Below, one piece after another: positions 9,961-22,908 of a DNA stretch of 45,891 nt. The stretch is from Clostridia bacterium (lineage in GTDB: Bacteria > Bacillota > Clostridia > RGIG6154): the NCBI GenBank assembly GCA_045589295.1, contig JAZNOU010000006.1, positions 1-45,891 on the forward strand. The letters are read 5' to 3'. Within the stretch, counting starts at the first letter, position 1; the number at the start of each line of letters is the position of its first letter. The notes under the pieces are model-generated. The model had not been told where the DNA came from. It made no database searches and saw only the letters and a list, made by a program, of their open reading frames with translations. The translations under genes and the position numbers were made by a program.

Positions 9961-10209
9961 TTATTTACTCTTTATTTCATCAACGCAACTTTTGCAAATA
10001 CATTTACCTTTGAACAAAGCCAGATTTTCTGTTGTTCCGCAAATGACACAGCTTTTGTTGTCAAATCTCTTAACAACAACTTTATCGCCATCTCGATAAA
10101 TTTCAACAGGTGTGTCTTTTTCTAGTCCTAAAATTTTTCTTATATCCTTTGGTATAACAATTCTGCCTAGTGCGTCTACTCTTTTACCATTTTCTGTAGT
10201 TTTGCTCAT
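9961..10209 (-). CDS. abrB: AbrB family transition-state regulator
   Basis: RVDALGRIVIPKDIRKILG N-terminal domain and C-terminal CVICG...ICKSC zinc motif; start at ATG 10209. Confidence 0.88.
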   Translation of the reverse strand: MSKTTENGKRVDALGRIVIPKDIRKILGLEKDTPVEIYRDGDKVVVKRFDNKSCVICGTTENLALFKGKCICKSCVDEIKSK

Positions 10210-10231
10210 TTTTATCCCACCCTTCGATAAC

Positions 10232-10260
10232 ATTTTACAGCATTTTAATAAAAAAGTCAA
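10232..10260 (-). promoter_or_regulatory. Sigma-A-like promoter for abrB
   Basis: Minus strand TTGACT-N17-TAAAAT. Confidence 0.6.
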
Positions 10261-19408: not shown

Positions 19409-20389
19409 ATGAAAATAGCAATTATTTGTGCTAAAGAAAAAACAACTGACATTTTTACAGAAAAAGACATCAATAGATTACGCGCTCTTGGTGAAGTTGC
19501 AATCAACGAAGGTGATGCTTCAATTGAAAATATCAAAGCAACTGTTAAAGATGCTGATATTGCAATCACTTCATGGGGCAGCCTTAAAATGGAAGAAGAA
19601 ATTTTAAACGAATGTCCAAACCTTAAACTTTTAATGCACGGTGCAGGTTCAGTTAAACCTTACGTTTCAGATGAACTCTGGGCAAAAGACATCAGAGTTT
19701 GCGCATCAACAAAACCACTCGGTATCGGCGTTGCAGAAACTGCTTTAGGTTTTACAATTGCAGCTTGCAAAAACTTCTTTGCAATTAACGAAGACATCCA
19801 CAACGGCGGATACCTTCGTGAAAATATTAAAGAACTTTATGAAATTACAGTTGGTGTAGTAAGTGCAGGTTTCGTTGGCAGACACTATATTAAACTTCTC
19901 CAGAACTTCGGCGTTGATGTTCTTCTTTATGATCCATATGTCACAGAAGAACAGGCAAAGGCTATGGGATGCAAGAAAGCAGAACTGGAAGAACTTCTCA
20001 AAGTTTCAGATGTTGTTTCACTTCATGCTCCATCAATCCCTGCTACAAAACATATGATTAATGCCGAAACTCTTAAATTAATGAAAAAAGATGCTGTTCT
20101 TATTAACACAGCAAGAGGTTCACTCATTGATGAAAATGCTCTTTATGAACATATGAAAGCAGGTAACTTGAAATACACATGTATGGATGTTTATGATCCA
20201 GAACCACCAATGGAAGATAACCCACTCCGTACACTTAAAAATGTAATTATGACTTCACACCTTGCAGGTCTTGTTTCAAACGGACTTTTGAGAATCGGTG
20301 CACACTGCGCAGACCAGATTGAAAACTTTGTTAACAATCAGCCAATGGAATGCGAAGTTACAAAAGATATGCTTGCAAAAATGGCGTAA
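19409..20389 (+). CDS. D-isomer-specific 2-hydroxyacid dehydrogenase
   Basis: HGAGSVK, VVSAGFVGR, YDPY, SLHAP, LINTARG, DVYDPEP, SHLAG; ATG 19409 behind AAGGAG. Confidence 0.92.
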   Translation: MKIAIICAKEKTTDIFTEKDINRLRALGEVAINEGDASIENIKATVKDADIAITSWGSLKMEEEILNECPNLKLLMHGAGSVKPYVSDELWAKDIRVCASTKPLGIGVAETALGFTIAACKNFFAINEDIHNGGYLRENIKELYEITVGVVSAGFVGRHYIKLLQNFGVDVLLYDPYVTEEQAKAMGCKKAELEELLKVSDVVSLHAPSIPATKHMINAETLKLMKKDAVLINTARGSLIDENALYEHMKAGNLKYTCMDVYDPEPPMEDNPLRTLKNVIMTSHLAGLVSNGLLRIGAHCADQIENFVNNQPMECEVTKDMLAKMA

Positions 20390-20397
20390 AACCATTA

Positions 20398-20429
20398 AAA
20401 CAACCACCCAAAAGGGTGGTTGTTTTTTT
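20398..20429 (+). terminator. Rho-independent terminator
   Basis: AAACAACCACCC-aaaa-GGGTGGTTGTTTTTTT. Confidence 0.85.
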
Positions 20430-20463
20430 CGAATAAAAGAAATTATAAATTTTCAAAAAAATA

Positions 20464-20492
20464 TTGACAAATAAAAAAAACTTTGTTATAAT
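20464..20492 (+). promoter_or_regulatory. Consensus sigma-A promoter for tRNA-Gln
   Basis: TTGACA-N17-TATAAT with extended TGn and an AT-rich upstream region. Confidence 0.85.
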
Positions 20493-20511
20493 AGCAATGT
20501 TGAAAATAAAT

Positions 20512-20585
20512 AGCGGGATTGTGTAAGGGTAGCACGACAGACTCTGACTCTGTTTGTGAGGGTTCGAATCCTTCTCCCGCTGCCA
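20512..20585 (+). tRNA. tRNA-Gln(CTG)
   Basis: Acceptor AGCGGGA/TCCCGCT, D stem GTGT/GCAC, anticodon arm ACAGA-CTCTGAC-TCTGT, T arm GAGGG-TTCGAAT-CCTTC, encoded CCA. Confidence 0.97.
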
Positions 20586-20586
20586 T

Positions 20587-20618
20587 AAAAAAGCAAGCAC
20601 TTTAGTGCTTGTTTTTTT
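20587..20618 (+). terminator. Terminator after tRNA-Gln
   Basis: AAAAAGCAAGCAC-ttta-GTGCTTGTTTTTT. Confidence 0.85.
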
Positions 20619-20629
20619 ATGCTTAAATT

Positions 20630-20783
20630 GGGGTAGATTCGAACCCGAACTGAGGGTGCCCGCGTAGCGACCGCCGCCAGTGGCGGATGAAGGGAGCACG
20701 CAAGGGCTATGCAGTAACACAATGAAATGAGCTGACTCTCAGCGAAATTGAATTGATGTTACAAATGGATAGAATCCTTCTCC
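20630..20783. repeat. Structured tRNA-associated element bounded by antisense and sense copies of the tRNA-Gln 3' half
   Basis: GATTCGAACCC (20636-20646) is the reverse complement of tRNA 20560-20570; GAATCCTTCTCC (20772-20783) duplicates tRNA 20566-20577; internal hairpins include CCGCCAGTGGCGG. Confidence 0.65.
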
Positions 20784-20824
20784 AAAAAAATAAATAGCAT
20801 TCGATTTTTCTAAACCAAATGCTA

Positions 20825-21025
20825 TTATTTTTCAAACGTGATAACATCTTCAATTTTACAATCTAATGCAATGCAAATTTTATTTAAAATAAAACTGTCA
20901 TATCTTACAACTTTGTTTTTATAGTAATTATCAATTATATGATAACGAATACCAGTACGCTTTGCTAATTCGTATCTTGAAACATTACGATTCTTTAATG
21001 CAGAATCAAGCGTAATTCTTATCAT
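20825..21025 (-). CDS. Cro/C1-type (XRE) helix-turn-helix regulator
   Basis: 66 aa: SRYELAKRTGIRYHII...LNKICIALDCKIEDVI; GAGGTG RBS. Confidence 0.85.
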   Translation of the reverse strand: MIRITLDSALKNRNVSRYELAKRTGIRYHIIDNYYKNKVVRYDSFILNKICIALDCKIEDVITFEK

Positions 21026-21126
21026 AAACTCACCTCTAAATATATTTTAATAAATATATATCTTATTGACAACTCCCATATATAGATGTATACTTATATG
21101 CGTATATGTTATTGATGGAGGAAACT

Positions 21127-21393
21127 ATGGCTGAATTTTGTCTGGATTGCTGGAATAAACTAAACAAAACTGAAGATAGTCAAAGAAAATATATTTTATC
21201 AAAAAATTTAGATTTGTGCGAAGGTTGCGGAGAGTGGAAACAGGTAATTATCATGGAACGCAAAGCATACTATATTCGTATATTTAAATTATTTCTCTCT
21301 CCAATCTATATTATGTGCAATATAATATATTTTGTATGGAGATTACTTATACTCCCATACTTACTATTTAAGTATAGAAAATCAAAAAAATGA
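21127..21393 (+). CDS. Small hypothetical protein with two CxxC motifs and a hydrophobic C-terminus
   Basis: MAEFCLDCW...LCEGCGEW; GGAGG RBS before ATG 21127; promoter TTGACA-N17-TATACT at 21066-21094. Confidence 0.7.
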   Translation: MAEFCLDCWNKLNKTEDSQRKYILSKNLDLCEGCGEWKQVIIMERKAYYIRIFKLFLSPIYIMCNIIYFVWRLLILPYLLFKYRKSKK

Positions 21394-21462
21394 ATTGAAT
21401 TCAAACCACCCAAATTAATGGATGAAAAATCACAACTATTTATTTCGCAAAATGCCCTCTTA

Positions 21463-21475
21463 GGGTTCAAGTCCC
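21463..21475 (+). repeat. Inverted copy of the tRNA-Leu T arm
   Basis: GGGTTCAAGTCCC is a perfect 13-bp inverted repeat of 21536-21548. Confidence 0.75.
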
Positions 21476-21488
21476 TACTTATTTGCAC

Positions 21489-21520
21489 AAAAAAAGAACA
21501 CCCCATTGGTGTTCTTTTTT
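21489..21520 (-). terminator. Terminator after tRNA-Leu
   Basis: AAAAAAGAACACC...GGTGTTCTTTTTT. Confidence 0.85.
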
Positions 21521-21522
21521 GT

Positions 21523-21607
21523 TGGTGCGAGTGATGGGACTTGAACCCATACGCCACGAAGCACACGCCCCTCAAACGTGCCTGTCTGCCAGTTCCAGCA
21601 CACTCGC
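21523..21607 (-). tRNA. tRNA-Leu(GAG)
   Basis: GCGAGTG/CACTCGC acceptor, anticodon arm CACGT-TTGAGGG-GCGTG, long variable arm, GGGTTCAAGTCCC T arm, ACCA end. Confidence 0.97.
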
Positions 21608-21637
21608 ATTTGATATTTAGTTAAATCAACAAAAGTT

Positions 21638-21666
21638 ATTTTAACACACCAAATGCAGTTTGTCAA
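21638..21666 (-). promoter_or_regulatory. Sigma-A promoter for tRNA-Leu
   Basis: Minus strand TTGACA-N17-TAAAAT with TGn. Confidence 0.75.
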
Positions 21667-21686
21667 GTGTTTAGGTAAAAAATATT

Positions 21687-21851
21687 CTAAAAATCCGATA
21701 TTTTATCCAAAACCTGAAAAATTTGCTGTTTTGCATAGTCAATTACAAGCACTTTTGGTGTTCCAAGCAGGGAATTAATTGTAAAATCCACATAAAGCAC
21801 CCCTGCAACAAGAACAATTAACATCAAAATAATTTTAAGTGCAGTTTTCAT
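21687..21851 (-). CDS. Small membrane-anchored protein downstream of spoIIP (54 aa, absent from the ORF track; positional analogue of yqxA)
   Basis: Manual translation MKTALKIILMLIVLVAGVLYVDFTINSLLGTPKVLVIDYAKQQIFQVLDKISDF*; GGTGA RBS; fills the gap between spoIIP and the tRNA promoter. Confidence 0.65.
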   Translation of the reverse strand: MKTALKIILMLIVLVAGVLYVDFTINSLLGTPKVLVIDYAKQQIFQVLDKISDF

Positions 21852-21882
21852 TAAATCACCAAAGTTATTTTTTCACAACTTT

Positions 21883-22908
21883 TCATTTTATATACTCCTC
21901 CAAAATACACGCAAACAATTCTGCACTTTTGAGCACCTCATTTAAGCTGTTTCCGTTCGTACCAAATTCCACAATTAAAGAATTTTTTGTTGTGTGCCCG
22001 TTGAAACGCTCTTTCCTTAAATCAATCGGTCTCATTAGTCCGTCATACATTTTATTTGCCTGTGCCTGAAGTCCTATTGCAAACTTTAAGTTTTCCTGCC
22101 AGTGCGGATGCTTTAACCCTCCCTCGTCCGTTCCCACCACCAACATTAGCTGAGCTGCTTTTTGCCCGTTTACGTCATACGTTAGTTTGGTTCTTTTACC
22201 GTCTTCTGTTACTATGGCATCGCGGTGAACGTCCAAAATTACATCAATACCATCATAATGTTCCATATACCACTCGGCAGTTTTTAAGGCGTTTGCATAC
22301 GAGCCATTATAATTTGGATAGTCGTGCAGTTTTATATCGTGCAGAACATTAAATCCTTTTTCTTCTAACAGCTCTTCTAAATGAGAACCAATCTTTACAA
22401 CGTTTTTTTCATTGTCGCACGTTCTTGAGGTTGGCTGGTCTGAAAAGCCCTCAGTTGCGTGAGTATGAATAATTAAAATCTGCGGTTGTTTCTTCTTTTC
22501 AGGCGGTTTATAACCATCTGAAAGACTTAAAACATCAACTGTCTTTTGCGTGTGATTTTTAATTATAACACTATCATAACTTATCGTTTCGCCTGAATTA
22601 TAATATTTGATCTGCTCATCATAAACAGGTTCACTTAATTCTGTTTCTTCTTCATTGGGAACAAATTCGGGATTAAACACCTCTTGTTCTTTGGGCCTGG
22701 TTTTTTCAAACGCAAGATTTCTGACCTCATCAAAAAAAGTATATGACTTGTCTTTATACAAAACAAAGTTATGCGCCAAAATCTCTTTAGTATCAAGTCC
22801 GTAGGAAAAAGGCATAACAGCAGTATTTTTGCAAATAAAAAAAACACATATTAAAATTAACACACACACTGTCCTGGCAACAAAGTCAAGACCTTTATTA
22901 TCTTTCAC
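21883..22908 (-). CDS. spoIIP: Stage II sporulation protein P (engulfment autolysin)
   Basis: PQILIIHTHATEGF, YNGSY, LDVHRDA, LIVEFGTNGNS; N-terminal TM; GTG start at 22908 behind GGAGG. Confidence 0.93.
   Translation of the reverse strand: MKDNKGLDFVARTVCVLILICVFFICKNTAVMPFSYGLDTKEILAHNFVLYKDKSYTFFDEVRNLAFEKTRPKEQEVFNPEFVPNEEETELSEPVYDEQIKYYNSGETISYDSVIIKNHTQKTVDVLSLSDGYKPPEKKKQPQILIIHTHATEGFSDQPTSRTCDNEKNVVKIGSHLEELLEEKGFNVLHDIKLHDYPNYNGSYANALKTAEWYMEHYDGIDVILDVHRDAIVTEDGKRTKLTYDVNGQKAAQLMLVVGTDEGGLKHPHWQENLKFAIGLQAQANKMYDGLMRPIDLRKERFNGHTTKNSLIVEFGTNGNSLNEVLKSAELFACILEEYIK

Follow-up and report, generated by a model that had tools for sequence, protein, structure and literature searches.

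Integrative elements leave duplications of their attachment sites at tRNA genes, and so do derivatives devoid of an integrase, of the cis-mobilizable element (CIME) type. Structures composed of a duplication, an inverted copy and a further duplication are known as well, as sporadic mutations arising by template-switch rearrangements at quasi-palindromes; they are not known to recur as a conserved bracket that encloses a structured module. tRNA genes may also be disrupted, by bacterial group I introns in the anticodon loop or by archaeal introns in the D, anticodon and T loops, and some are split or permuted. One published article on this subject is PMC3293823. Here we analyze a 114-nt structured element, hereafter core-1, located behind the tRNA-Gln(CTG) gene of a Clostridia bacterium (GTDB lineage RGIG6154). 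The DNA analyzed, which we term the window, comprises the 45,891 nucleotides of contig JAZNOU010000006.1 (GenBank assembly GCA_045589295.1).

Core-1 belongs to a widespread, hitherto undescribed family of protein-less, folded RNA/DNA modules of gut Clostridia. Taking into account its fold, its nesting within tRNA-derived sequences and its turnover among related genomes, we tentatively read core-1 as a non-autonomous, cassette-like selfish module nested in disposable truncated tRNA copies of Oscillospirales-type Clostridia, and give this reading a little less than an even chance.

Results

The tRNA-Gln locus

A sequence-only reading of the window had proposed, in this region, a non-autonomous element that targets tRNA T loops and whose ends derive from the target. 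The pieces that it listed (an antisense copy of the tRNA 3′ part, a nested hairpin, a second hairpin, a 12-nt direct copy and a further stem-loop) are all present where it had placed them. It had also remarked that no integrase lies nearby, and this agrees with a Pfam scan of 33 of the 35 selected open reading frames (ORFs) of the window (the other two overlap with the element and with tRNA-Leu), which revealed neither an integrase nor a transposase or reverse transcriptase. In the following list of features, R1 is a covariance model built from 10 aligned copies of the module, the window copy being one of these 10.

20464..20492, + strand: sigma-70-type promoter of tRNA-Gln, TTGACA-17-TATAAT with TG, a perfect match
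20512..20585, + strand: intact tRNA-Gln(CTG), Rfam tRNA match of 59.5 bits
20588..20619: terminator hairpin (stem 20594-20611), preceded by an A run and followed by a T run; centre of a palindrome
20620..20646, + strand: mirror (antisense) arm of the tRNA-Gln 3′ part; acceptor part degenerate, 20636-20646 (GATTCGAACCC) exact
20643..20657, + strand: small hairpin ACCC-GAACUGA-GGGU, from folding and comparison with the tRNA sequence
20658..20771, + strand: core-1 module, a conserved structured element of 114 nt, from the R1 match and covariation
20658-61/20704-07 (GCCC/GGGC), 20664-68/20696-99, 20671-72/20692-93 and 20674-78/20682-86 (CCGCC/GGCGG): first set of core-1 helices
20708-10/20765-67 and 20714-18/20758-62 (GTAAC/GTTAC): second set of core-1 helices
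20731-35/20739-43 (GCTGA/TCAGC): variable tip hairpin of core-1
20772..20783, + strand: 12-nt direct copy GAATCCTTCTCC, equal to 20566-20577 (tRNA-Gln bases 57-68)
20793..20826: 15-bp hairpin with a T run, from folding; terminator of a − strand helix-turn-helix (HTH) gene

The intact tRNA comes first and its terminator next; an inverted copy of the tRNA 3′ part and a short piece of sense T stem then lead to the module, behind which lies a sense piece running from the T loop to the acceptor. The sequence GGGGTAGATTCGAACCC corresponds to 20630-20646, and its final 11 nt (20636-20646) are the exact reverse complement of the tRNA's GGGTTCGAATC. In the small hairpin, the 3′ strand (CTGAGGGT, 20650-20657) repeats in sense orientation the 5′ strand of the tRNA-Gln T stem together with T54. 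The direct copy at 20772-20783 covers the 3′ half of the T loop, the 3′ strand of the T stem and the beginning of the acceptor, stopping before CCGCTGCCA. The window copy of core-1 sits between T54 and G57 of this second, partial tRNA-Gln 3′ copy. As an A run precedes the terminator at 20588..20619 and a T run follows it, this hairpin is able to act in both directions; the hairpin at 20793..20826 may also stop read-through on the + strand. The tRNA-Gln promoter is the sole strong + strand promoter upstream of the element. A search of sequencing runs gave only small shares among RNA runs. Coverage in four RNA runs fell on tRNA-Gln alone (20502-20596), corresponds to tRNA contigs of other organisms, and is uninformative on expression of the module.

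Core-1 is a conserved, folded family

The stretch containing the element folds better than shuffled versions of it (z = -5.25 on the + strand and -4.44 on the − strand), and none of 200 shuffles equals it. A BLAST search of the window's genome (G000) with 20626-20790 yielded two more copies, one at 84% identity over query 29-153 and the other partial, and the genomes of relatives hold further ones. The inner segment is, as the sequence-only reading had anticipated, a multi-copy family with copies beside different tRNAs. Homology extends from 20654 to 20778, so that the antisense piece is excluded and the 12-nt direct repeat is covered only in part. Since the inner part represents a repeated, conserved family, the pattern is not due to chance.

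Core-1 is defined by a full-length match to R1 in which the conserved hairpin GCYGCC-NGU-GGCRG precedes ANNAAGNGA and the second domain closes with ...CCGCAA; module length in the family is about 115-125 nt. The window sequence 20650-20779 matches R1, of which it is itself a source sequence, with 142.5 bits over model positions 1-130. An R1 search detected core-1 in 11 of 18 genomes of the window's family, with 1-6 copies each, and, under stricter filters than those of the family count, in 23 of 151 genomes of the class (18 of 108 genera). A 23-letter consensus pattern was also scanned over genome contigs and viral contigs, and retrieved at least 121 stretches in the former and 68 in the latter; R1 gave 86 matches on the loci retrieved from genomes and 85 on those from viral contigs. 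Among the genome-contig matches listed, the taxa are nearly all Oscillospiraceae, Acutalibacteraceae, Ruminococcaceae or metagenome-assembled genomes of Clostridia; one of these matches (L106) is in a record of a Hominicoprocola fusiformis isolate, where R1 gives 28.3 bits. Tandem arrays of 2-3 core-1 units exist.

RNAalifold applied to the 10 copies gives 28 pairs, with compensatory changes at 14 of them. In an alignment of 85 distinct copies, which was fitted to R1 and for which the search pattern fixed helix 5, 90.2% of cells are paired (66.3% upon shuffling) and the covariation score is 0.392, compared to 0.117 in shuffled alignments (0 of 500 shuffles) and 0.04-0.07 with slid partners; the six helices other than helix 5 show free variation. 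G-U pairs are frequent at several positions and are compatible only with the + strand, which is that of the tRNA. The 5-bp closing helix of the model is paired in 81% of cases in the same alignment. The second domain is modular: it is exchanged among copies (GUAACAC... versus GCGGUCGAAAA...) and absent from short ones.

When 19500-22500 was searched against Rfam 15 (E up to 10), the two tRNAs and chance-level hits alone were obtained, none of them on 20654-20778, so that the element matches no Rfam family, in agreement with the sequence-only reading. A prophage-context copy of core-1 gave no blastn match among 50,697 phage records. The titles and abstract openings returned by a literature search hold no description of such modules.

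Most core-1 copies of the window's family are nested in truncated tRNA copies

Nesting was studied in a set of 32 copies drawn mainly from the window's family. A tRNA gene on the same strand lies within 420 nt of 24 of them, and the orientation of the module is always that of the neighbouring tRNA. A strict BLAST test, which demands a tRNA-derived flank of at least 14 nt abutting the module, was passed by 16/32 copies, and nesting was recognized by inspection in 25/32. Flanks matching the cognate tRNA, a property that had been expected of the element, were found for tRNA-Glu, Arg, Ser, Pro, Leu, Thr, Trp, Asn, Met and Gln. The junctions always follow GG, and lie in the D loop (positions 18-23; Leu, Ser-CGA, Pro-CGG), in the anticodon loop (position 37; Pro-TGG) or in the T stem/loop (53-55). 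Junctions are thus not confined to the T loop, the target that had been proposed: those in the D loop and the anticodon loop are as common.

Two layouts were observed. In layout A (Glu-CTC, Arg-ACG, Pro-TGG, Leu), the tRNA promoter is followed by the tRNA 5′ part from +1 to a loop, the module and a short tail, and the intact identical tRNA lies 20-40 nt further on. In layout B, that of the window (Gln, Asn, Ser-GCT, Thr, Trp), the intact tRNA, its terminator, an antisense piece and a short sense piece precede the module, which is followed by the sense tRNA 3′ part, often through CCA, and by a second terminator. Every host tRNA copy inspected is truncated, and the tRNA parts are decaying, with diverged anticodon arms and missing acceptor 3′ strands. 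The direct repeats measure from 12 to more than 55 nt and finish at the end of the tRNA; in copies other than that of the window, repeats of 25-51 nt reach CCA. In tRNA-Ser(CGA) a clean insertion is found, which consists of bases 1-18, the module and bases 20-41.

In four viral contigs (L181, L230, L234 and L240), 2-3 tandem units precede an intact tRNA-Pro that is the attachment site of a prophage. A unit opens with a promoter and bases 1-37 of tRNA-Pro(TGG); core-1 comes next, and 9 nt complementary to the flank complete it. In L181 and L230, the array is directly preceded by a gene for a predicted RNA nuclease of the PBECR5 type. Several such "viral" arrays are in fact host regions upstream of tRNA-Pro adjoining an integrated prophage. 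The ORFs flanking viral-contig modules include terminases, integrases, lysins and the PBECR5 nuclease; among the 149 flanking ORFs of unique viral-contig loci (56 with full-length matches) no family recurs as a constant neighbour. Downstream of the module in genome contig L060, two partial tRNA-Ser-like copies are both broken directly after the anticodon loop (…CTCGAAA, T run), which hints at a further type of insert or at a break point at positions 38/39.

Direct repeats that run from a tRNA loop to the 3′ end, several reaching CCA and one taking in the terminator, are also what integrase activity at tRNA genes would leave behind. Core-1 would then be the terminal part, adjacent to the attachment site, of attL/attR duplications left by prophages, islands or CIME-type derivatives, and both the arrays located beside prophage integrases at tRNA-Pro and the nine tyrosine recombinase genes of G000 are consistent with such an origin. 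However, the module occupies the interior of the loop, with the sense T-stem 5′ piece on one side and the 3′ half of the T loop on the other, rather than a place beyond a complete core site. In half of the nested copies it is the tRNA 5′ part that is duplicated, from +1 to a junction in the D loop or the anticodon loop; to our knowledge, tRNA-targeting integrases do not use such junctions. Moreover, the arrays beside prophages lie on the host side of the tRNA, conservation has the pattern of a folded single strand rather than that of protein-binding arm sites, and no integrase is found among the scanned ORFs of the window or, as a constant neighbour, across the 56 viral-contig loci. We consider integrase debris an improbable explanation.

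The antisense arm is part of a recurrent palindromic bracket

The region 20558-20648, comprising the tRNA T arm and acceptor 3′ strand, the terminator and the mirror arm, folds as a single long imperfect hairpin (z = -8.1). The same palindrome is present, on the other strand, at the tRNA-Leu(GAG) gene of the window (21455-21548; z = -7.7), where no core-1 module follows:

21523..21607, − strand: intact tRNA-Leu(GAG), from tRNA detection and Rfam
21455..21522, − strand: behind tRNA-Leu(GAG), terminator, mirror arm of the tRNA's own 3′ part (GGGACTTGAACCC), then TAAGAGGGCATTTTGCG

A spurious Rfam match to "mir-3145" at 21463-21548 corresponds to this palindrome. The sequence TAAGAGGGCATTTTGCG represents the 5′ start, of about 20 nt, of a second structured module unrelated to core-1, which we name family 2, and is cut off by a stretch carrying an ORF of 95 aa (ORF95) and an HTH gene.

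The genome has 42 tRNAs, four of which show, no more than 200 nt downstream, an antisense match of at least 10 nt to their own 3′ part (Gln, Leu-GAG, Ala and Leu-CAA). For tRNA-Gln the match is of 11 nt and lies 50 nt behind the tRNA, compared to a background of 4-7 nt; for tRNA-Asn a 9-nt antisense copy was found against the same background. Behind tRNA-Ala(TGC) (G000:C12:242320-242420), the terminator is followed by a 13-nt antisense copy of the tRNA's own T arm and TAAGAG, with no module behind; only the start of the bracket remains behind the arm at tRNA-Ala and tRNA-Leu(GAG). At tRNA-Leu(CAA) the arm begins a different module, and the direct repeat takes in the entire terminator. The antisense arm is also the constant 5′ end of family-2 modules. 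Because the same arm stands behind tRNA-Leu(GAG) and tRNA-Ala in the absence of a core-1 module, it is not specific to core-1. The antisense copy, taken by the sequence-only reading for an end of the element, is instead the mirror arm of a terminator palindrome and part of a recurrent bracket made of a direct, an inverted and a direct copy. The best antisense match, over 15 nt, is to the tRNA-Gln of another species; it was considered as a sign of foreign origin, and was discarded as it depends on two base differences.

The arm could also act, in line with the alternative offered by the sequence-only reading, as an antisense RNA that pairs with the tRNA or its precursor, in cis upon read-through or in trans, and controls maturation of the cognate tRNA, with the module as a structural or sensing domain. 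For tRNA-Gln and tRNA-Leu, the arm is able to form a helix of 11-13 bp with the intact T arm across the terminator, and the clearest antisense hits in 5′ flanks share the identity of the neighbouring tRNA (Gln, Asn, Thr, Met, Gly). Nevertheless, the arm is present also where core-1 is not and many module copies have no antisense arm, and we regard this explanation as very improbable.

Orthologous loci differ in their modules

We compared G000 with three congeners (G001, G002 and G003; four species of one genus in all). The two genes of the window that bear on this comparison are:

20825..21025, − strand: Cro/C1-type HTH gene, 65 aa, from Pfam; within an 833-bp stretch missing in G003
21106..21393, + strand: ORF95, 95 aa, with no Pfam match; within the same stretch

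At the tRNA-Gln locus of G003, the same terminator and TTAAAT are followed by an uninterrupted, degenerate T-arm copy (GTGAGGGCTCGAGTCGC) and then by the tRNA-Leu terminator; the antisense piece, the module and 833 bp with the HTH gene and the 95-aa ORF are absent. This provides the empty counterpart to the filled allele that had been sought. The missing 833-bp stretch corresponds to window positions 20629-21461 and holds the module, the Cro/C1-type HTH gene and the 95-aa ORF, the latter of no family. At a distance of 17 kb, the same contig of G003 has a copy of the HTH/ORF95 pair that is 80% identical; the pair may be a small two-gene unit, mobile or toxin-antitoxin-like. In G002, the tRNA-Gln site holds a different module of 161 nt, with an antisense T arm at its start and the tRNA-Gln 3′ end through CCA at its end, and in G001 that module can be followed for 33 nt from its start, up to a contig edge. 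The tRNA-Ser(GCT) of G000 was discarded as an empty site, synteny being broken there.

The 161-nt module belongs to family 2, two copies of which are located as follows:

G002, contig C13 (L255 2583-2743), − strand: family-2 copy at the tRNA-Gln site
G000, contig C12, about 240-390 nt behind tRNA-Leu(CAA) at 21569-21655, − strand: divergent family-2 copy, missed by BLAST

Family-2 modules measure about 150-160 nt, start with an antisense T arm, end in the T-loop-to-CCA part of the cognate tRNA, and contain the internal sequence GGTG(C/T)G(A/C)AG(G/C)C(G/C)GGTAC...GCAAGCAGG. They were found by BLAST in 12 of 18 genomes of the window's family, and have no match in Rfam 15.

At the tRNA-Glu(CTC) locus, core-1 is present in all four species. 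The orthologous Glu copies of G001, G002 and G003 are 0.74-0.84 identical to each other, and the Glu copy of G000 is below 0.71 to all three; across loci, identity reaches 0.90 between the Glu copy of G002 and the Ser copy of G003, and 0.88 between the Glu copy of G003 and the Ser copy of G001. Core similarity does not track the locus, which argues that cores are exchanged between loci.

As for the remainder of the window, its genes include SpoIIP, pointing to a spore-forming bacterium of Clostridia type. A small ORF of 98 aa resembling a MazE/AbrB-type antitoxin (9961-10257) is unrelated to the module.

Discussion

Core-1 as a possible selfish module

The reading of core-1 as a selfish module agrees in part with the sequence-only reading, from which it retains the non-autonomous element; the repeated module family is established, and its mobility is suggested by comparison among genomes. 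Core-1 folds single-stranded, in the sense of the tRNA, and in this state the tRNA-derived pieces, together with the inverted copy, can close it in a multi-way junction. The bracket as a single strand is able to pair with both sides of the module, most clearly at Pro (9 bp), Thr (8-9 bp), Asn (9 bp) and Leu (7 bp). On the selfish reading, exchange or insertion of copies would take place within tRNA genes, at those GG-containing loop sequences that are most conserved, and copies would survive only in disposable duplicate tRNA copies. The inverted tRNA copy ("A, inverted A, A") would be made by template switching at the palindromic terminator, an origin that we infer from the geometry of the locus.

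Several observations weigh against this reading. Complementarity between the flanks is modest, both in layout A (6.68 versus 5.51, 0 of 200 permutations, aided by seven related tRNA-Pro copies) and in layout B (6.33 versus 5.71, 7 of 200 permutations). A flank-to-flank duplex test with 38-nt windows gave a weak signal (median z -0.46; 19 of 159 below -2), and for this reason we claim a 5-bp closing helix, with longer ones in single copies, and not a long closing helix for the whole family. The alignment used for covariation depends, as described above, on R1 and on the search pattern, and strongly conserved internal loops are likewise compatible with a cellular function. When the strict nesting test was applied to 165 unique copies, only 44 passed it and most copies of the wider sample had no recognisable tRNA flank; nesting in tRNA is hence not universal, and the tRNA association foreseen by the sequence-only reading holds for most copies of the family set but not for most of those in the wider sample. 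No near-identical copies were found at different loci within a genome, the best pair at different tRNAs reaching 0.82, and no transposition or excision event was seen; any movement would accordingly be old, or have occurred by conversion, with no sign of very recent movement. Lastly, neither of the two transposase families surveyed, Y1_Tnp and IS110, is a clean partner of the module. Across the 18 family genomes, we found Y1_Tnp in 12, namely in 8 of the 11 with a core and in 4 of the 7 without one. IS110 is present in 5 of the 11 and in none of the 7, yet G001 and G002 have cores without it, and both IS110 genes of G000 lie on other contigs and lack an R1 hit.

The same survey bears on the possibility that core-1 is a non-autonomous derivative of an HUH/Y1 transposon, of the IS200/IS605 type or of that of repetitive extragenic palindromes (REP) and their REP-associated tyrosine transposases (RAYT), which would insert 3′ of a short motif containing GG, in folded single-stranded DNA of tRNA genes on the lagging-strand template. 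Such a mechanism would suit the junctions after GG in a loop, the fixed orientation relative to the tRNA, the folded single strand and the clean insertion in tRNA-Ser(CGA), and G000 does contain Y1_Tnp fragments. The HUH enzyme envisaged in the sequence-only reading does not co-occur cleanly with the module, however: besides the distribution given above, core-1 is present in G001 (2 copies) and G003 (6 copies) where Y1_Tnp is lacking, none of the R1 hits adjoins a Y1 gene, TnpB (PF07282) was not found in G000, and the duplicated and inverted tRNA pieces would be left unexplained. We deem this derivation as improbable as an origin from integrase debris.

The main alternative to a selfish module is a family of cellular small RNAs scaffolded on tRNA genes. 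Transcription would proceed from the tRNA promoter, the module lying before the intact tRNA in the upstream layout and being reached by read-through of the terminator in the downstream one; tRNA-processing enzymes would trim the transcript, a conserved protein or ligand would bind to it, and the tRNA pieces would serve as handles for processing or stability. Strongly conserved internal loops and hairpins, stems with compensatory changes and an orientation that is always that of the tRNA are what would be expected of such RNAs; the partial copy of the upstream layout retains the tRNA promoter with the intact tRNA 20-40 nt later, and the tRNA-Glu(CTC) copy is kept in all four species of the genus. 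A patchy distribution (23/151 class genomes), variable copy number and tandem arrays fit it poorly. Congeners may have nothing, or another module, at the same locus, likeness between cores is not ordered by locus, the tRNA parts are decaying, and the window copy stands behind a strong terminator and lacks its own promoter. We judge a cellular role unlikely, albeit clearly less so than integrase debris or a Y1 derivative.

A broader proposal, which we put forward as a speculation and consider about as doubtful as the small-RNA alternative, is that core-1 and family 2 are members of one new class of protein-less mobile modules spanning several phyla, which would home into exposed loops of tRNA genes (or of tRNAs) in a reaction guided by their own folded single strand. 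The tRNA bracket would be an internal guide aligning both sides of the target, and the reaction could be ribozyme-like or assisted by host enzymes, with no gene of its own.

If core-1 is mobile, it would represent a selfish element with neither a protein nor fixed ends, whose bracket is copied from its target and for which tRNA loops, biology's most conserved sequences, are landing sites. It could account for the numerous stray tRNA fragments located beside tRNA genes in gut Clostridia, and a short, programmable insertion of sequence, either independent of proteins or dependent on host enzymes, would be of technical interest. If the modules are cellular small RNAs, they would constitute a large and strongly structured RNA family of abundant gut bacteria and of prophage regions. 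In either case, genome annotation overlooks the modules and misreads the partial tRNA copies.

Comparison with known systems

Miniature inverted-repeat transposable elements (MITEs), attachment-site remnants, tRNA introns, bridge RNAs, retroelements and omega RNAs each differ from core-1 in at least one defining feature. With MITEs, REP sequences, bacterial interspersed mosaic elements (BIMEs) and palindromes derived from IS200/IS605, core-1 shares being small, protein-less, multi-copy, structured and intergenic. Unlike MITEs, it has no target duplication of fixed length and lacks family-constant terminal inverted repeats, since the bracket is copied from the local tRNA; of the transposases surveyed, neither Y1_Tnp nor IS110 tracks it cleanly. 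IS110 bridge RNAs or seekRNAs, which have guide loops for target and donor, lie beside the gene of a DEDD recombinase, whereas the IS110 genes of G000 are on other contigs and two of the congeners have modules without IS110. Group II introns and retrons differ in their reverse transcriptase, of which no gene (PF00078) was found in G000, a genome that is 97% complete, and the omega RNAs of TnpB/IscB differ likewise, PF07282 not being detected in that genome.

Like introns in tRNA genes, core-1 is inserted in tRNA loops, and pairing of the flanks joins the two sides of the insert. In contrast to introns, its host copy is truncated, with an intact gene beside 24/32 copies of the family set, and no group I or other Rfam match was obtained. 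As the host copy is truncated and the intact gene stands alongside, no splicing is needed; bacteria, as far as we know, lack the archaeal splicing endonuclease.

Attachment-site duplications and CIME-type derivatives have in common with core-1 loci an intact tRNA behind which its 3′ part is directly repeated (over 12 nt in the window), as well as a location at hot spots with rapid turnover. The core-1 loci depart from them in having no integrase in the window, in the position of the module within the loop, in the duplications of the tRNA 5′ part, in the D-loop junctions, in the inverted copy and in the folded single strand. That inverted copy is in turn the feature shared with template-switch rearrangements: the tRNA 3′ part is present as a direct, an inverted and a direct copy, and the inversion is centred on the hairpin of the terminator.
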